From: an uncultured Acidimicrobiales bacterium
GTDB lineage: Bacteria; Actinomycetota; Acidimicrobiia; Acidimicrobiales; DATKAS01
Length of the DNA stretch: 64,000 nucleotides
Direction of reading: 5' to 3'
Assembly: GCA_963739555.1 (NCBI GenBank)
Contig: CAVUAV010000011.1
Coordinates: 92,558-156,557, forward strand
The translations under genes were made by a program, and so were the position numbers. The notes below the pieces were generated by a model. That model had not been told where the DNA came from, made no database searches, and was given only the letters and a program-made list of their open reading frames with translations. The stretch's first letter is position 1. Every line of letters starts with the position of its first letter. Positions 28,928-37,329 of the stretch are shown one piece after another.

Positions 28928-30431
28928 ATGAGGTCGCGGAGCCGAGCTCACCATGGTGCCGTCAGCCACGTGGTCGTGTGGGCTGGCGCACTCGCCCTTG
29001 TCAGCTCGCTGCTCCCCGCCTGCGGGGGCTCCTCAACGTCCACGTCTTCGACGGGCACCTCGTCGACGGGACTCGTGCTCGAGGCGTGCACTGTCGATGG
29101 CGTGTCGGCAAGATGCGGGACCCTGAGCGTTCCCGAGGACCGACTCGGAGGCGGTGGTCCTCAGATCCCGATCCGGGTCGTGGTGATCCCCGCTACCGAT
29201 CCGCACCGGCAGTCCGATCCGATCGTCTGGTTCGCAGGCGGTCCCGGCGATTCTGCGGTGGACACGATCAGCCGGGTGCGACCGCTCCTCGCGGCGAACA
29301 CCGACCGAGATCTGGTCTTCGTCGAACAGCGCGGCACCGGGGCCTCGAACATCACCTGCCCGGCGTTCCCGGGGCTCGACGACAAGGTGGCGCTTCGGTC
29401 GGCCGTCGAGTCGTGCTTGGCGAGCCTGCGCGCTGACCTGCGCTTCTACACAACGGCCATGTTCGCGGACGATCTCGACGAGGTCCTTTCCGATCTTCAC
29501 TACGAGAAGGCCAACCTCGTCGGCATCTCCTATGGCACCACGGGTGAGCAGGTCTTCTCGACGAGGCACCCGGATCGGGTCCGCACGATGACACTGCTCA
29601 GTGGCACGCCTCTCGACGTTCCGGTGTTCGAGCGGTTCCCCGAGAACGCACAGCGCGCCCTCGACCTCGTGTTCGACGAGTGCGAGCGGGCCCCGGCCTG
29701 TCAGCAGGCCTTTCCGACTCTCCGCGCCGACTGGACCGCCCTGTGGAGCTCGGTGAGCGCATCGCCCTGGGTTGTGCCGGCCGACCAGTCACCGAGCGGC
29801 ACCGAGGTCAGCCTCGACTCGAGTTGGGTCGCCTCGAAGCTGCATGACCTCCTTCTCGTCGCCACGACCCAAACCAGGCTCCCGCTCCTCGTGCACACCC
29901 TCGGCGCCACCGAAGACCGGGTCGCTGCCTTGCTCGCCGTCACCCAGGCGTACCCGGATTCTCCAGGTACGGGCTCCAGCGAACAACAGATGCTCCCCTA
30001 CGCCATCCGATGCAACGAGGCGTGGGCCCGCGACGATCCCAGCAAGCTCGTCGGCGCCGGACAGCTTCGAATACGGGCTGGACCGAAGCAACGCCGAATG
30101 GTGGCAGGAAGTCTGCGCGCTCATCCCCAAGGCCAGTGACACGACCGCAACCGCGGAGTCGACGAAGTCCGACGTGCCCGTCCTCGCCTTCAATGGCGAG
30201 GAGGACCCGCAGGACCCGCCGGGCAACATGGCGGGAGCCCACGAGCTCTGGCCGAACAGCCTCGTGCTGACAGTGCCCGGGCAAGGACACGACATCGACC
30301 CGGTGTCCGCGGGCTGCGAGATCCCACTCATCAAGTCATTCATCGAGCAGGGCGGCGTCGCCGGACTCGACACGACGTGTCTTTCGAAGCTTCCGCCGCC
30401 CTCGTTCGATCTCACGCTCCCCGGCGGTTGA
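28928..30431 (+). CDS. TAP-like alpha/beta hydrolase lipoprotein (frameshift near 30055)
   Basis: Lipobox LLPAC, CGTLSVPED, AGGPG, EQRGTG, GISYGT, GEEDPQDP and PGQGH. Confidence 0.85.
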
Positions 30432-31032: not shown

Positions 31033-31653
31033 TCAGCGCGGCGTGTCGGCTTCCATCGTGACCTCGAGCCGTGCTCGCGACAACAGGTCGTAGGCAGCAG
31101 CCTGCCGGGCGGGAGGCCGCCAGTCGAGCACCGCCGCCTCCACGATCACCCACGACACCACCCACGAGATCGTGACCACGAGCACCGCCGTGACTGCGAG
31201 CAGGCCCGCGGCTCCTCCGTCGGCCTTGGTCGCGAGGTAGCCGAAGACGTACGCGGCGATCCAGCACACGATGGCGATCGCCATCCCGGCGGGCAGCTGG
31301 GCCAAACCCGTAGAGCGAACGGCCATCGCCTCCCGCCATGCGACGGATGACAGGGAGAGGGCGCGCCGATGGAGCGCGGCCTCCACCTCGGTCACGGGTG
31401 GGCTGATCGCAGCCGTCGGCGGCAGCACCGCGCGAACGACGATCTCGTCGGGGAGCCGTCGCACCGCCATGAGGATGGAACCCAGCTCCTCGACCCCCGA
31501 CTGCTCAGCGAACGGACGATCCGCGAATGGGTCGCTCTCGGGCTCGCGAACGAGGTCGGCGAGCTCGGAGAGCTCGACGACGACGAGACGCTCCGCGTGG
31601 ATGCGCGCGAGCTCTGCATCGAGGTCTGCGCGTGCGGCCAGGGTGAACCTCAT
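31033..31653 (-). CDS. Hypothetical membrane protein (two C-terminal TM helices)
   Basis: Coherent 206-aa ORF with a hydrophobic hairpin and SWVIVEAAVLDW. Overlaps the region just after alkB. Confidence 0.6.
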   Translation of the reverse strand: MRFTLAARADLDAELARIHAERLVVVELSELADLVREPESDPFADRPFAEQSGVEELGSILMAVRRLPDEIVVRAVLPPTAAISPPVTEVEAALHRRALSLSSVAWREAMAVRSTGLAQLPAGMAIAIVCWIAAYVFGYLATKADGGAAGLLAVTAVLVVTISWVVSWVIVEAAVLDWRPPARQAAAYDLLSRARLEVTMEADTPR

Positions 31654-31678: not shown

Positions 31679-32434
31679 CTACGCGCGAGCGAAGCCGGTC
31701 TCCCGCACCGTGAGGCTCAGCCTTCCGCTCGGGAGGCCGAGGCCTCGCGGCCCCGTGTTGTCGTAGACCTTCGGGACGCCGTGGTACACCCGTCGACTCG
31801 GACCACCGAACACGAGAAGGTCGCCCGAGCGCAGCGGGATGTCGACGAACGGCGCGGTTCGCCGCTCGACGCCCGCGATGCGGAACACGCAAGTGTCGCC
31901 CACGCTGATGGTGACGACAGGCGCGTCCGATGGCTCCTCGGCGTCCTGATGGAGGCCGAGCCGCGCACCCGGCGCGTACAGGTTGGCGATCACCGCGTCC
32001 GGCTCGAAGTGCTCCGCGGTCGGCGCGCCGAACGTGTCGGCGACGGCTTGTCGGGCGAGTCGGAAGATCCCAGACGGAAGCGGCTTGACCGGCGCCCCGT
32101 CGGTGTCGTCTGCGGTGCGGCTGTATGCGTACGGCTGCCAGTGCCAGCCGAGGCACACGGACTGCACGCTCATCAGGTGACCGCTCGGCACGCGTGGGTG
32201 ACGAAGACCTGCAGGCGGAAGCGCCCAGACGCGGAACTGCTCGACCAGCGACCGCTGCTCGGCGGGCGAAAGCCACCCTGAGATCACGACCACTCCGGGC
32301 GACAGCTCGGTGCGCTCTGACTGCCGCGGAAACAGCTCCATCGGCGTGGCCGCAGCACCCGATGCGAAGTCGCGGGGAAGCGAGGTCGGCACGCCGCCGA
32401 GGCGACTCGTCCCCATCGCAGACCTGCGGCTCAT
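31679..32434 (-). CDS. alkB: Alpha-ketoglutarate-dependent dioxygenase AlkB
   Basis: MSVQSVCLGWHW.PYAY, NLYAPGARLGLHQD, SGDLLVFGGPSRRVYHGV and RLSLTVR. Confidence 0.92.
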   Translation of the reverse strand: MSRRSAMGTSRLGGVPTSLPRDFASGAAATPMELFPRQSERTELSPGVVVISGWLSPAEQRSLVEQFRVWALPPAGLRHPRVPSGHLMSVQSVCLGWHWQPYAYSRTADDTDGAPVKPLPSGIFRLARQAVADTFGAPTAEHFEPDAVIANLYAPGARLGLHQDAEEPSDAPVVTISVGDTCVFRIAGVERRTAPFVDIPLRSGDLLVFGGPSRRVYHGVPKVYDNTGPRGLGLPSGRLSLTVRETGFARA

Positions 32435-32441
32435 GACAAGA

Positions 32442-32468
32442 AGACGACAGGGACGCTCCGAACGTGAG
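32442..32468 (-). promoter_or_regulatory. ECF-type promoter for alkB (probably leaderless)
   Basis: Minus strand CTCACG-ttcggagcgtccctgt-CGTCT, 7 nt upstream of ATG 32434. Confidence 0.7.
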
Positions 32469-32473
32469 CCGAC

Positions 32474-32500
32474 CTCACGAAATCGTCACCGCCGTCGTCT
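32474..32500 (+). promoter_or_regulatory. ECF-type autoregulatory promoter for the sigma-ogt-oxygenase operon
   Basis: Plus strand CTCACG-aaatcgtcaccgccgt-CGTCT, with the same boxes and 16-nt spacer as the divergent copy. Confidence 0.7.
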
Positions 32501-32529
32501 ACCAGACATCTCGTACGGTCAGGAGCCAC

Positions 32530-33018
32530 ATGCCGCGCAAGCAGCCTTTCGAGGTTGTCGTCGAGATCCACGGCGCGACGGTGCTGCGCGTCTGTCGGGC
32601 GGTCGTCGGGCCGAGCGATGCCGATGACGCGTGGTCAGAGACGTTCTTGTCCGCGATGAAGGCGTATCCCTCACTCCCCGACGACGCCAACGTCGAGGCA
32701 TGGCTCGTGACGATCGCGCATCGCCGAGCGATCGACATCGGGCGCGCTCGGTCCCGCCGGGCGGCCCCGACCGATGCGATCGCCGACGGCGTCGATCAGC
32801 GTGTACAGACGGAGCCAGCATCCGATCCCGACCTCGTCACCGCTCTCGCCGCACTTCCCGACAAGCAGCGTCAATCGGTGGCCTATCACTACCTCGCTGG
32901 ACTGCCGTACGCCGAGATCGCGGAGATCCTGGGCGGGACCCCCGAGGCCACGCGACGCGCCGCCGCTGACGGCATCGCGACGCTCCGGCGTTCACACACG
33001 AAAGGGGTGCTCCATTGA
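32530..33018 (+). CDS. ECF RNA polymerase sigma factor
   Basis: RBS AGGAG; region 2 DADDAWSETFLSAMKAY...AWLVTIAHRRAID; region 4 LAALPDKQRQSVAYHYLAGLPYAEIAEILG. Confidence 0.9.
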   Translation: MPRKQPFEVVVEIHGATVLRVCRAVVGPSDADDAWSETFLSAMKAYPSLPDDANVEAWLVTIAHRRAIDIGRARSRRAAPTDAIADGVDQRVQTEPASDPDLVTALAALPDKQRQSVAYHYLAGLPYAEIAEILGGTPEATRRAAADGIATLRRSHTKGVLH

Positions 33019-33628
33019 GCACGGAAGTCGACCTCACCAATGCACTGCAGGGCGCCGTCAGCGTCGACGACGATCACATTCGCCGGCTCCGCGAGCGGCT
33101 CGCCGCCGACGCGGAGGCCGAGCACGTGCTCGACATCGGCTACCGCACTGTCGACAGCCCCGTGGGGAGCTTGCTGCTCGCCGCGACCGAGACCGGACTG
33201 GTCAGAGTCGCCTACGCGAGCGAGGACCACGATCGCGTGCTCGAGAGCCTCTCGAGCGAGATCAGCCCTCGCATCCTGCGCCATCCTGCTCGCCTCGACG
33301 CCGCCGCCGCGAGCTCGACGAGTACTTCGACCGGCGTCGGAAGGTCTTCGGGCTGCGCCTCGACTGGCGCTTGTCGGACGGCTTCCGCGCCACCGTCCTC
33401 CATCACCTGGGCGACATCGCGTACGGGCGCACCGCCAGCTACGCGGAGGTCGCGCAGCTGGCGGGTCGTCCCAAGGCCGCCCGCGCGGTCGGGACCGCGT
33501 GCGCCAACAACCCGCTTCCCATCGTGCTGCCCTGCCATCGCGTCGTGAGGTCGGACGGCAGCATGGGCGGCTATCTCGGAGGGGTCGACGCGAAGGCGAC
33601 GCTGCTCGAGCTCGAGGCAGCCGGGTGA
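33015..33628 (+). CDS. ogt: Methylated-DNA--protein-cysteine methyltransferase (frameshift near 33305)
   Basis: YRTVDSPVGSLLLAAT, IAYGRTASYAEVA and ARAVGTACANNPLPIVLPCHRVV (PCHR active site). Confidence 0.92.
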
Positions 33629-34334
33629 CAATCGAGCAGCGGGTCGACGACCTCGATTGGGACGCCGCCTTCGCTGGCCTCGACGAGGTCGGCATCGCCG
33701 CACTCGGCCCGATCCTCGACGACGACGAGTGCAGCGAGCTCGGGGCGCTGTACGACGACGGGTCGCTGTTCCGATCGACGATCGACATGGCGCGGCATCG
33801 CTTCGGCCAGGGCGAGTACCGCTACTTCGCGTATCCGCTGCCGCGCGTCGTCGCGGAGCTTCGGGCGTCGTTCTGGCCTCACCTGCTTCCGATCGCGCGC
33901 GAGTGGGCCGCGCGGCTCGCACGCCCCGCCCCGTGGCCCGACGACTTCGAGGAATGGATCGCGCAATGCCATGCCGCCGGTCAGACTCGACCCACTCCAC
34001 TCATGCTGCGCTACGGACCGAATGACTGGAACGCGCTGCACCGCGACCTCTACGGGGATCTCGTGTTTCCGGTCCAGGTCGTCATCGGCCTCGACTGCCC
34101 GGAGCGCGACTACACGGGCGGCGAGTTCGTCGTCGTCGAGCAACGACCGCGCGCCCAGTCACGAGCGACGACGCGCACGATCCCTCTCGGACACGGCATC
34201 GTGTTCACCACGCGGGATCGACCGATCAAGTCCGCCGCGTGGATGGGCGTCCGCCCCCATGCGCCACGGCGTCAGCACGCTTGCACAGCGGCAAACGCCA
34301 GACGTTGGGCCTCGTGTTCCACGACGCCGAGTAG
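33625..34334 (+). CDS. 2OG-Fe(II) oxygenase, DUF2086-like (frameshifts near the 3' end)
   Basis: FRSTIDMARHRFGQGEYRYF, PTPLMLRY, NALHRDLYG, GGEFVVVEQRPRAQSR and MRHGVS...GLVFHDAE*. Confidence 0.85.
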
Positions 34335-34361: not shown

Positions 34362-36041
34362 CTAGTCGGCGTCGGGGAAGCCGACGATCTCGACCGTGCC
34401 GGCCTTGCCGTCCACGCGCACGAGCGCACCGTTCGGGATGCGGCGGGTGCCGTCGACGGTGCCGACCACCGCGGGGAAGCCCATCTCCCGTCCCATGATC
34501 GCGGCGTGCGACGCGAAGCTCCCGTGATCGGTGACGATCGCGCCGACGACGTGGAGGAAGGAGTTGAACGACTCCCCCGTCGCCGAGGTGACGAGCACCT
34601 CGCCGTCCACGAGCTCCATGAGGTCGTCGAAGTTGCTCACGATGCGAGCAGGCCCGACGTAGACGCCGGCACTGCCACCGATGCCCATCACGACCCGCTC
34701 ATCACCCGCAGGAGCGGGCGCCTCGCCGCTGACTCCGCCGATCACGAAGCCGAGCGCGCTCATCACACGGGCAAGCGGCGGCGGGAGGGCATCGACGGGC
34801 GGCGGGGGCGGCGGGGGCGGTCCGAGCAACGGCGGCGCGCCAGCCTTGCTCAGGGCCTTGCGGGTCGCGACCCGGGCCGCGAGCTCCTCAGCCGTGGGAT
34901 TCGCGGAGCCACCGAAGATCGCGTCGATCTCCGCGCCGCGAAGGTCGAGCGTGTCGTACTTGAAGCCGATGCGACCGCGCTCGAACAGTCGGGTGCCGAG
35001 CTCGATCAGCGCGAGTCGCATCAGGCCGACCGCGGACGAGTCGCTGTAGAGACCGCGCTCGTCGCGCAGCCGGTACACGAGGCGCGCCTCGGCGAGCATG
35101 TCGTCGAAGGCGTCTCGCTGGTCCTCGGGAACCGCCTCACGGAGCTCGGCGGCCAGCGCGTCGGCGCGCTCGGTCGAATGATCGGCGTCGTAGCCGAACG
35201 CGGCTGCCAGGCGCCCGAGCACGAGGTCGGGTCGCTCGACGACCGTCGGGTTCGTGAGGTCGAAGCCCGCGGCGATGCGGAATCCGACAGCGCGGACGTA
35301 CGCATCGACGGCGGGCACTTGCTCGCGAAGCGCCGCGAGGCGGTCTGCCGCAGGCGCGTCGCCAGTCAGCAATCCCTCGGCATCGGGATCCGCGCGCAGT
35401 GCCTCGATCGCCGGCGCGATCTCGGGGTTGAGCACCCCCGACACCGGCGACCAGCCGTCGAAGACCGCAAAGATCGGCACTGGGTCACGCTGCGTCCAGC
35501 CCGCCGCGTGGAGGACGAAGTCACCGACTGCGACGAGCGCGGCGGCGTTGTAGGTGTGGTGCTGCTGCCACATCTGCGACATGTGATCCATGCACTGGTG
35601 GAGGTGGGCCCGGAGCTCTTCATCGCTCAACGCGGGAAGGTCGACCGCTGCGAGCTCACGATGCCGTGCGATGGAGCGCGGCTTTGCCTCTTCGTCCCAG
35701 TACTTGAGGGTGTCGCGCCAGATCCGGTTCGCGAAGGCCGCGTCGGCGAGCGCCGTGCGACGACCGATCTCGGCGCCGAGCTGCTCGGGCGACTTCGGAC
35801 CGTCGGGTCCCGGCACGTCGAACGGCACCGGTTGCGTGTACGGGAACCCGTTGACGAACGCGAGCTGCATGGTGTCGAGGAGCACGCCGTACGGGTCGAG
35901 TGCCGCGGAGAAGCCAGCGGCAAATCCCTTCGGATAGATCTCCTGCAGCAGCGGTGTCACCGATGCCGGCAGATGCGCTCGATCTTGCATCCACGGACCC
36001 GGACCCGGCGCTTCCCACGCTTGGTCGTTCATGTCGCCCAT
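34362..36041 (-). CDS. PEP-utilizing enzyme: substrate-binding domain plus C-terminal His swivel domain, no ATP-grasp domain
   Basis: APGPGPWMQDRAH N-terminus; C-terminal GAIVTDHGSFASHAAIMGREMGFPAVVG...VRVDGKAG. Confidence 0.8.
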   Translation of the reverse strand: MGDMNDQAWEAPGPGPWMQDRAHLPASVTPLLQEIYPKGFAAGFSAALDPYGVLLDTMQLAFVNGFPYTQPVPFDVPGPDGPKSPEQLGAEIGRRTALADAAFANRIWRDTLKYWDEEAKPRSIARHRELAAVDLPALSDEELRAHLHQCMDHMSQMWQQHHTYNAAALVAVGDFVLHAAGWTQRDPVPIFAVFDGWSPVSGVLNPEIAPAIEALRADPDAEGLLTGDAPAADRLAALREQVPAVDAYVRAVGFRIAAGFDLTNPTVVERPDLVLGRLAAAFGYDADHSTERADALAAELREAVPEDQRDAFDDMLAEARLVYRLRDERGLYSDSSAVGLMRLALIELGTRLFERGRIGFKYDTLDLRGAEIDAIFGGSANPTAEELAARVATRKALSKAGAPPLLGPPPPPPPPVDALPPPLARVMSALGFVIGGVSGEAPAPAGDERVVMGIGGSAGVYVGPARIVSNFDDLMELVDGEVLVTSATGESFNSFLHVVGAIVTDHGSFASHAAIMGREMGFPAVVGTVDGTRRIPNGALVRVDGKAGTVEIVGFPDAD

Positions 36042-36153
36042 TGCCGCCCCCTTCGCCACCGCCCGCGAGGTGTGCCCCGCAGCGGGCTGCACGGTAGTGG
36101 CCGGTTCGGAGGCGCCTCTCATCGACGACTGGCGCGCTCGCAGCTTCTGGCCG

Positions 36154-36537
36154 TCAACCCGTCGCAGGCTGGAAGAGCTCGATGACGTTGCCCGACGGAT
36201 CCAGCACGAGGATCTGGCGTCCACCCGGTCCGCTCACGACCTCGTTGCGGAAGTGCACGCCCGCATCCTTGAGGCGAGCAACCTCTGCGTCGAGGTCGGC
36301 GGTGATGAAGTGGAGGCGGTTCCATCCGCCGGGACCTGGCGTGACGCCGTCTGGCATCGGGCGGCCGGCCGAGCTCATCGGTCCGCTCAGCAACACGCGA
36401 AGGTTCCCCTTCGTGACGTCGGCGAACGCAGGCGAGCTGATCCCGACCTCGAACCCGAAGTGGGTGGAGTAGAAGTCCACCGCCTCGGCCACGTCGTTGA
36501 CCATGTACCGAACGTTCACGACCTCATCGGACGACAT
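36154..36537 (-). CDS. VOC / glyoxalase family protein
   Basis: VRYMVNDVAEAVDFY and SGPGGRQILVLDPSGNVIELFQP. Confidence 0.9.
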   Translation of the reverse strand: MSSDEVVNVRYMVNDVAEAVDFYSTHFGFEVGISSPAFADVTKGNLRVLLSGPMSSAGRPMPDGVTPGPGGWNRLHFITADLDAEVARLKDAGVHFRNEVVSGPGGRQILVLDPSGNVIELFQPATG

Positions 36538-37329
36538 GGATGCTCCTCTCGCCGTCGGCCGAGTGCGCGAGCTCGGCGATCAGCAGGTTGACGCGGACTT
36601 CGATCTCGTCGGCCGCACGCACGAATGCCGGATAGCTCTCGTCGTCGTTCGCTGCGGCAGACGGCCGGGTCGGCCATGCTCCAGTGCGCGGCCACTGGCT
36701 CGCCGGGAAACTCGGGACAGATCTCCTTGACCTTGTCGCACAGGGTGATGACACGATCGAAGCGAGCGCGCGCGAAGCGCTCGAGATGCTTGGTGGTCTG
36801 CCCGGATATGTCGATCCCTCGCTCTGACATCACCCGCACTGCGTTCGGGTGAAGAGGCTTCGGGTGGCTGCCCGCGCTTCGGGCCTCGACCACGCCCTGC
36901 GTGTGATTCGTGAGCAGCGCCTCGGCGATCTGGGAGCGCGCAGAGTTCCCCGTGCAGAGGAACAGGACGCGCTGGCTTGCGCTTCACCGCGCCGATCTGT
37001 TGCGGAACCGGTGGCGCGAGCGCGAGCGCCGGGTGCAACGCGGCTCCGGCCGACACGAAGAGCTGGCCGAAGCGGGCGAGGTCGAGCCGGTAATACGTGT
37101 CGCGCCCGTCGGCAGAGCTCTGCCGGGCCGACACGAGACCCCCTGACCGGAGCTCTCCGAGGTGATACGAGACGAGGTTCTGGGCCTTTCCGACCAGCTG
37201 AGCGACCTCGCCGGGCCGCCGGTCGCTGCGAGCGAGATGGCTCAGAAGCTGCCAGCGCAGTGGGTCCGCGACGAGCTGCAGGAACTGGAGAGGCGCTGCG
37301 TCGGCAGCAACTGTGACCACGTCATCCAC
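36524..37329 (-). CDS. ArsR HTH fused to an LMW phosphatase / ArsC-like domain (two frameshifts)
   Basis: ADPLRWQLL...QNLVSYHL...DGRDTYY; then VLFLCTGNSARSQIAE (CX5R), SAGSHP, ITLCD and HWSMADP. Confidence 0.85.

Follow-up and report, generated by a model that had tools for sequence, protein, structure and literature searches.

An ECF122-type sigma factor locus with back-to-back promoters and an alkyltransferase as candidate anti-sigma factor in an uncultured Acidimicrobiales bacterium

How might the repair of alkylated DNA be tied to the expression of repair genes at a locus that encodes no Ada protein? The question is raised by positions 31679-34334 of a 64-kb stretch of DNA (hereafter the window) from an uncultured Acidimicrobiales bacterium, whose genome (G000) is available as 19 contigs, 82% complete and 4.3 Mb in size. 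Four genes lie between these positions, namely alkB on the minus strand and, on the plus strand, the genes for a sigma factor of the extracytoplasmic function (ECF) type, an O6-alkylguanine DNA alkyltransferase (Ogt) and an oxygenase of the PF09859 family. A preliminary description of this DNA had proposed that Ogt occupies the place of an anti-sigma factor and holds the sigma factor until its active cysteine is methylated. Our analysis favors, with a probability of roughly 55%, the reading that the locus is a self-contained alkylation-damage regulon of the sigma factor group ECF122, with Ogt as an anti-sigma factor that would be released by alkylation. The genes and their predicted promoters, with lengths in amino acids (aa) and nucleotides (nt), are as follows:

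31679..32434, minus strand: alkB, a 251-aa open reading frame (ORF) for a 2-oxoglutarate (2OG)/Fe(II) DNA demethylase; matches PF13532 over positions 1-194 of 194, E 4.5e-44
32442..32468, minus strand: predicted ECF122-type promoter of alkB; -35 CTCACG (32468-32463), 16-nt spacer, -10 CGTCTTC (32446-32440)
32474..32502, plus strand: predicted ECF122-type autoregulatory promoter of the sigma-ogt-oxygenase operon; -35 CTCACG, 16-nt spacer, -10 CGTCTAC
32530..33018, plus strand: ECF sigma factor, 162 aa; ATG at 32530, stop at 33016-33018, frame open from 32464
33015..33628, plus strand: N-terminally extended Ogt with PCHR present; TTG start overlapping the sigma stop, frame broken once between 33299 and 33311
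33625..34334, plus strand: PF09859 'Oxygenase-NA' 2OG/Fe(II) oxygenase; GTG start overlapping the ogt stop, stop TAG at 34332-34334

The sigma factor contains regions 2 and 4 only (Sigma70_r2, residues 11-76, and Sigma70_r4_2, residues 102-144) and passes the NCBIfam sigma70-ECF model with 66.7 bits against a cut-off of 42.9. Its stop overlaps the start of ogt by 4 nt (TTGA, 33015-33018), the stop of ogt overlaps the start of the oxygenase gene by another 4 nt (GTGA, 33625-33628), and a gap of 95 bp (32435-32529) separates alkB from the sigma gene. The divergent arrangement and the short overlaps reported in the preliminary description are thus as stated, and its observation that a separate anti-sigma gene is missing also holds: the sigma stop runs into the ogt start, the 95-bp gap holds promoters, and no anti-sigma Pfam family was found among the eight window proteins scanned. 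Pfam scans of the locus returned neither Ada_Zn_binding nor HTH_AraC. The first frame of ogt contains Methyltransf_1N and the second DNA_binding_1 (E 3.3e-31), and in both frames taken together Pfam gives only Ogt domains and no anti-sigma family (zf-HC2, RskA and the like). The last gene of the operon, earlier described as a generic 2OG-Fe(II) oxygenase, does encode such an enzyme and belongs specifically to PF09859, whose profile is matched over positions 1-142 of 172 (E 1.4e-62) in the first frame, with the remainder in two other frames, and over 1-172 of 172 by an intact relative from the same genus; a literature search on PF09859/DUF2086 yielded nothing relevant. Given that the alkB product matches PF13532 over its full length yet scores below the NCBIfam AlkB equivalog cut-off (113 versus 267 bits), it is to be regarded as a putative diverged AlkB. 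Its AlkB core starts at residue 32 (ATG 32341), which is also where the NCBIfam AlkB alignment begins.

Examination of the gap between the divergent genes points to how they might be transcribed. The pattern CTCACG-N16-CGTCT occurs exactly twice in the 64 kb, at 32442-32468 on the minus strand and at 32474-32500 on the plus strand, back to back, against an expectation of 0.16, and two or more copies were seen in none of 100 shuffles. A position weight matrix was derived from 92 sites of other genomes, the near-identical relative L024 being left out; positions that the search had not forced are conserved in it all the same (T at +26 in 97%, C at +28 in 96% and A at -2 in 70%). Scanned across the whole 4.3-Mb genome, this matrix ranks the plus-strand site first (28.6) and the alkB site second (23.7), and the strict pattern has three matches genome-wide, two of them at this locus. 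The two copies noted in the preliminary description are hence the only ones in the window and the best two matrix matches of the genome. An AGGAG ribosome site (32521-32525) lies downstream of the plus-strand promoter, whereas the alkB mRNA may be leaderless because its ATG (32434) sits 7 nt past the -10 box. The next-best matrix matches, C10:315432 (22.2) and C10:348866 (17.7), were rejected as promoters, with only arginine-rich ORFs that look to be in the wrong frame downstream of them; since no credible gene stands behind these matches, the regulon in this genome appears to be limited to alkB and the sigma operon. We also considered the inverted repeat CGTGAG-N5-CTCACG as the operator of a dimeric regulator. 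This was discarded on two grounds, namely that divergent pairs elsewhere have gaps of about 2 to more than 50 nt between their -35 boxes and that single promoters hold the -10 box at the fixed 16-nt distance. As far as sequence comparison can tell, the mirror-image arrangement is two promoters and not an operator.

The sigma factor and its promoters correspond to a group already in print. In the supplement to Casas-Pastor et al. 2021 (PMC7826278), ECF122 is described as restricted to Actinobacteria and as having no anti-sigma factor, with a 6-O-methylguanine DNA methyltransferase at position +1 in all subgroups as the sole conserved neighbor named (s1-s3), a predicted promoter with -35 CTCAC and -10 CGTCTAC, and an inferred role in DNA damage repair. 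The window locus shares the ECF architecture, the +1 methyltransferase, the lack of an anti-sigma gene, the promoter and the actinobacterial host, and its plus-strand site CTCACG-N16-CGTCTAC (32474-32502) is identical to the published motif. The closest named homologues of the sigma factor come from metagenome-assembled genomes of Ilumatobacteraceae/Acidimicrobiales. A listed member of ECF122 is WP_057211282.1 from Cellulomonas sp. Root930, and the sigma factors of two other Cellulomonas genomes (L041 and L085) are 64% identical to that of the window and have Ogt at +1. The locus is accordingly classed here as a predicted ECF122 member, an assignment made by feature match to the published description. 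The preliminary description had left it to be checked whether the group was already characterized: it is catalogued as ECF122 (PMC7826278), while a 2022 review places it under 'unknown mechanism' and counts the methyltransferase among the neighbors that could regulate (PMC8999054). The sigma-Ogt pairing, the promoter and Ogt as a candidate regulator are therefore already in print.

To what extent the arrangement is conserved was assessed at two ranges. The near set comprised 61 genomes (G000 and 60 relatives), of which 13 carry the sigma factor at E <= 1e-20; one of these loci, L019 (genome G051), is flagged as unpublished and makes up one row in the 13-locus counts and in alignments A1-A4. 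In the wide scan a relative of the sigma factor turned up in at least 585 stretches from species-representative genomes, mycobacteria, streptomycetes, Rhodococcus and Arthrobacter among them, and the best 80 stretches were examined, the hosts of which are all Actinomycetota except for one labelled Dormibacteraeota. Ogt directly follows the sigma gene in all 13 near relatives and in 79 of the 80 further loci, the 80th being cut by a contig end. The two genes overlap by 4 nt in each of the ten near relatives with intact pairs and in 66/79 further loci (any overlap in 75/79). Furthermore, ogt is unbroken in 78 of the 79 further loci, and 77 of these 78 keep PCHR. The element CTCAC-N17-CGTCTnC stands upstream of the sigma gene, or of the gene preceding it, in 12 of the 13 near relatives (all but L015; read in these as CTCAC[GA]-N16-CGT[CT]) and in 79 of the 80 further loci, the exception (L088) having only 460 nt of upstream sequence; the conservation that the preliminary description had named as a test is thus found on the sigma side. 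On the plus strand, 59 motifs fall in the bin from -250 to 0 and 34 in that from -750 to -500, with 0-4 in each other 250-nt bin. These results support both window motifs being putative ECF promoters of this sigma factor's own group.

The flanks of the 80 further loci add recurrent neighbors, whose counts are lower bounds in that some contigs are short. A second, ordinary Ogt is encoded in 48 loci (directly upstream on the same strand in 34, divergent in 13), and a PF09859 oxygenase lies within the flanks of 41, in 33 of them downstream in the operon at +2. The gene for AlkB is present in 12, ten times downstream on the same strand and once divergent, in L024, which is the same stretch as the near relative L009. 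Divergent copies of the motif elsewhere precede ordinary Ogts and alkB, with varying gaps between the -35 boxes. In L034 a divergent copy precedes a 237-aa ORF that, by its translation alone, is a PF09859-type oxygenase. ECF122-type motifs also occur before SnoaL-like proteins of 148-164 aa in L023, L054 and L068 (upstream, same strand) and in L046 (divergent), with Pfam matches in L023, L054 and L046, and before PEP_mutase-family proteins of 258-269 aa in L044 and L099 (divergent, both by Pfam). These two kinds of protein may be further regulon members without an obvious link to alkylation repair.

Compared with 41 ordinary Ogts that these loci also encode, the 83 Ogts at +1 are, to judge from their sequences, a distinct subtype. 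They are longer (median length 203 versus 175 aa), and two elements are found in them only: 1) an N-terminal helix, conserved as L..RLh.RL...A...GLLDVAY; 2) a 7-residue insertion with an invariant SPR. The N-terminal extension forms one helix of about 25-40 residues, and solved bacterial and human Ogt structures match the profile only from positions 34-41, so that the helix is in none of them; the stretch of the window quoted earlier as a helical extension is indeed present. Both kinds of Ogt keep PCHRV, and in the +1 Ogt we also recognize, by alignment against the human and E. coli residues, those that belong to active alkyltransferases (Arg finger, Tyr, Asn and Glu). Because 48 of the 80 loci also carry an ordinary Ogt, the +1 copy would be hard to explain as a repair enzyme only, which suggests that it has a job other than repair. 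In the most distant sigma relatives, L017-L020 (about 40-47% identity), DAWSETF is replaced by DCFQETF, and their Ogts shift in step, with VDVAW for LDVAY, GYGGG for GYLGG and an N-terminal helix that differs, as if they formed a subgroup of their own.

Do the two proteins bind each other? Given that the window ogt is frameshifted, the complex was predicted for the same-genus pair L011, with alignments of our own (86 and 83 rows), three runs and three controls. The score is 0.88 (0.88, 0.89 and 0.88 in the individual runs) against 0.00 for the best control; among solved complexes, 116 of 157 attain the score mark, as do 2 of the 215 mismatched pairs, counts that are rough because own alignments were used. 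The runs share at least 97% of their contacts, and the partner has a predicted local distance difference test (pLDDT) value of at least 92. Since no PDB entry contains both the sigma and the Ogt families, the score cannot stem from a known structure of such a complex. In L011 numbering, sigma residues 3-19 and 32-47 are predicted to face the N-terminal helix of Ogt (residues 5-30) and its SPR insertion (residues 63-76), that is, the very elements that set the +1 Ogt apart. The sigma side holds an N-terminal PFE motif and DAWSETF, which are invariant or nearly so in the 86 sequences. On the window, where Ogt numbering equals L011 numbering plus 13 by our own comparison of translations, the predicted contacts are the following:

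32536-32670, plus strand: predicted Ogt-binding surface of the sigma factor, region 2.1/2.2 (residues 3-19 and 32-47, numbered from the gap-free alignment with L011)
33066..33143, plus strand: Ogt N-terminal helix, predicted sigma contact (window residues 18-43), absent from ordinary and solved Ogts
33240..33281, plus strand: Ogt 'SPR' insertion, second predicted sigma contact (LESLSSEISPRILR, window residues 76-89)

Both predicted Ogt contact elements lie upstream of the ogt frameshift in the window. The model thus supports a predicted binding of Ogt to the sigma factor, and the structure prediction that the preliminary description had proposed has Ogt contacting sigma region 2 by way of the helix to which that description had pointed. 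Region 2.1/2.2 is the core-binding surface of sigma factors, and region 2.2, to which sigma residues 32-47 (DAWSETFLSALRAYP) presumably correspond, is the main docking site for the clamp helices of the polymerase. Binding of Ogt there would inhibit the sigma factor, because this surface docks on the polymerase.

In light of these observations, we propose that the ECF122 sigma factor reads both back-to-back promoters, that of its own operon and that of alkB. The 4-nt overlaps would couple translation of the sigma factor, Ogt and the oxygenase, such that synthesis of Ogt keeps pace with that of the sigma factor. Ogt, most likely a soluble anti-sigma factor, would cover sigma region 2.1/2.2 with its N-terminal helix and SPR insertion and block docking on the RNA polymerase core. 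The signal might be the irreversible alkylation of Ogt itself or its engagement on O6-alkylguanine DNA, which we infer because Ogt keeps all catalytic residues; the freed sigma factor would then raise expression of the whole set. That alkylation would bring about release is suggested by the retained catalytic residues, by the way in which a suicide enzyme works and by the instability of alkylated alkyltransferases. If Ogt is an anti-sigma factor, it would be of a new structural kind, outside the zinc-binding/class I anti-sigma family. A fuller version of this proposal, to which we give somewhat short of even odds, would make Ogt a single-use soluble anti-sigma factor of that new kind: the N-extended protein clamps region 2.1/2.2, alkylation of PCHR destabilizes it and frees the sigma factor, the number of lesions repaired sets the transcription of alkB, a PF09859 oxygenase and, in most genomes, a second Ogt for bulk repair, and the whole constitutes a second, sigma-based adaptive response that many Actinomycetota would have in addition to Ada or in its place. 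The mechanism put forward in the preliminary description is thus the best current explanation, now with a specific predicted interface, though as an idea it is not new to the literature.

The organism as a whole probably has an Ada-type system too. In E. coli the adaptive response to alkylation is built on Ada, which in its methylated form activates transcription. The only Ada_Zn_binding match in the present genome (G000:C6:115512-115703) lies in a 488-aa open frame on another contig than the locus, and an Ogt gene adjoins it downstream (C6:117194). Hence the preliminary description was right that the locus holds no Ada, whereas its phrase 'Ada-independent' does not hold for the organism. Given this Ada-type gene, Ada-type and ECF122-type alkylation systems probably coexist in the genome. 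The segment C6:115512-117448 probably represents a mycobacterial-type AdaA-AlkA/Ogt operon. Further DNA_binding_1 matches occur at C10:530912 and at C5:1171273-1171519, the latter again in two frames.

Several results weigh against Ogt as an anti-sigma factor released by alkylation. The modelled pair is that of L011, whose sigma factor is 68% identical to that of the window, and not the window's own proteins. The model touches sigma region 2 only and not region 4; the catalytic domain of Ogt is outside the contacts, and for this reason the model does not show how alkylation of the cysteine might lead to release. That binding would inhibit follows from general knowledge of region 2.2 in other sigma factors. 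Covariation between the proteins (mutual information with average product correction, 83 paired rows, effective number of sequences about 60) places interface pairs twice among the top 20 (0.33 expected) and twice among the top 100 (1.66 expected), a signal too weak to speak for or against the interface. The divergent position of alkB turns up only in this genus (the window and L009/L024), ten other loci having alkB after the operon. A literature search, outside which most subscription journals fall, found no experiment on any ECF122 member or sigma-Ogt pair. The unconvincing covariation also leaves room for a simpler account, in which Ogt is merely a co-transcribed repair enzyme, its coupling to the sigma gene serves co-expression, and the sigma factor is controlled through another transcriptional regulator, through proteolysis or solely through positive autoregulation. 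The Ada-type regulator of the genome could feed into such control. According to the 2022 review, ECF groups without any anti-sigma factor do exist, some of them transcriptionally regulated, and the 'unknown' entry for ECF122 itself fits as well (PMC8999054). We nevertheless consider this account unlikely, in that two additional conserved elements set the +1 Ogt apart as a subtype, at loci that in 48 of 80 cases also have an ordinary Ogt, these are the two elements that the model places on the sigma factor with 0.88 against 0.00 for the best control, and the (nearly) invariant PFE motif of the sigma factor falls within the modelled interface. Much less probable still is that Ogt acts as a positive partner which stays with the sigma factor on RNA polymerase as a co-activator or as an adaptor targeting damage. 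A methyl-accepting repair protein can activate transcription, as Ada does, and in the model both sigma region 4 and the DNA-binding/catalytic domain of Ogt stay free; the predicted contact, however, covers sigma residues 32-47, the clamp-helix docking site in other sigma factors, and neither the -35 nor the -10 element of the promoters is incomplete, with no further conserved site in the matrix.

The frames of the last two genes bear on whether the module functions in this strain at all. The N-terminal part of ogt (33015-33299) and the C-terminal part with PCHR (33311-33625) are in different frames, and the oxygenase frame shifts twice, near 34235 and near 34280; the operon of the preliminary description stands in its gene order, but not with ogt as one open frame (one break) nor with the oxygenase gene as such (two breaks). 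If the frameshifts were real, the module would be decaying here, which would also count against a working regulon: the locus would be a decaying cluster of pseudogenes from which no Ogt and no oxygenase is made. Such decay might leave three frame changes in 1.3 kb, as are seen here. To check the frames, contigs of four public soil-metagenome runs (X1-X4) were aligned to the stretch; they are 90-99% alike to the window, may represent either the source sample or related strains, and leave some parts uncovered in some runs. Every bridging contig nevertheless has single-base differences that restore each frame by coordinate arithmetic: in the four runs together, five contigs show an additional base behind 33307, where otherwise just a 24-base fragment starting at 33305 is present, and both contigs covering 34235 (runs X1 and X2) are without one base there and without another at 34279 or 34281. 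Other genes of the window are split as well, judging by translations alone: an alpha/beta-hydrolase-like ORF (28928-30431) has its C-terminal part in another frame near 30100, and an ArsR/ArsC-like pair or fusion (36516-37329) has overlapping frames. In the relative L009 the ogt frame changes at a different place. Because the contigs restore the frames, other window genes are split, the genome, in its 19 contigs, is only 82% complete and the break in L009 lies elsewhere, all of which fits an indel-prone assembly, the three frameshifts are probably assembly indels and not decay; genuine decay we hold to be very unlikely. Each of these three alternatives fits fewer of the results than Ogt as a releasable anti-sigma factor does. 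As to the assembly itself, identical 40-mers are shared by C2:4116 and C13:438715 and by C17:14101 and C10:306861, and small contigs may duplicate parts of large ones.

Two further ORFs border the locus. A 206-aa ORF (31033-31653), like alkB on the minus strand, starts 25 nt past the stop of that gene, with which it may share a transcript; its C-terminal half is hydrophobic, it matches no Pfam family, and a faint NCBIfam match to EexR/EexS (E 0.00098) is far below the cut-off. On the other side, a 620-aa ORF (34362-36224, minus strand) is convergent with the oxygenase gene, and its only Pfam match is a PEP-utilizers mobile domain at the C-terminus (E 3.4e-18).

Taken by itself, the window is of modest import, adding one more ECF122 member with the local twist of an alkB gene under its own mirror-image promoter. 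If the proposal is true, a suicide repair enzyme would hold a dedicated sigma factor and be consumed by the damage that it repairs, and this would be a second design, besides Ada, by which a stoichiometric repair event is turned into gene control. Co-regulation also links the uncharacterized PF09859 oxygenase family to alkylation repair, and the simple promoter together with a predicted interface of named residues makes the system directly testable.

In comparison with ECF122 as published, the locus is alike in its actinobacterial ECF sigma factor, the absence of an anti-sigma gene, the +1 methyltransferase and the CTCAC/CGTCTAC promoter. What is added here, all of it computational, is the alkB gene with its own promoter copy on the opposite strand, the PF09859 oxygenase, second Ogt and AlkB as neighbors, the subtype of the +1 Ogt and an interface model with controls. 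With the Ada response of E. coli and the AdaA-AlkA/Ogt operons it shares a set for direct reversal of alkylation (alkyltransferase and AlkB) and a suicide methyl acceptor as the proposed sensor. In contrast to them, however, the locus is without the Ada Zn(Cys)4 domain and without an AraC-type DNA-binding domain, the output of ECF122 would pass through a dedicated sigma factor with its own promoter type, and the proposed switch is relief of inhibition instead of a gain of DNA binding. In the SigR-RsrA system of Streptomyces, a cytoplasmic anti-sigma factor encoded right after an autoregulated ECF sigma factor is inactivated by a covalent change of cysteine. The proposed release of ECF122 resembles it in resting on a chemical change at a cysteine of the protein whose gene directly follows the autoregulated sigma gene. 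RsrA, though, is a zinc-binding anti-sigma domain subject to reversible oxidation, whereas Ogt is an enzyme with no anti-sigma domain that undergoes alkylation; since the latter is irreversible, each Ogt molecule would signal once. Soluble, enzyme-like +1 proteins (glyoxalase/dioxygenase and Rieske protein) have likewise been proposed as anti-sigma factors for ECF125 and ECF127 in the same classification (PMC7826278). These groups are alike in being actinobacterial with a soluble candidate anti-sigma factor at +1, and differ from ECF122 in protein families, promoters and inferred signals.

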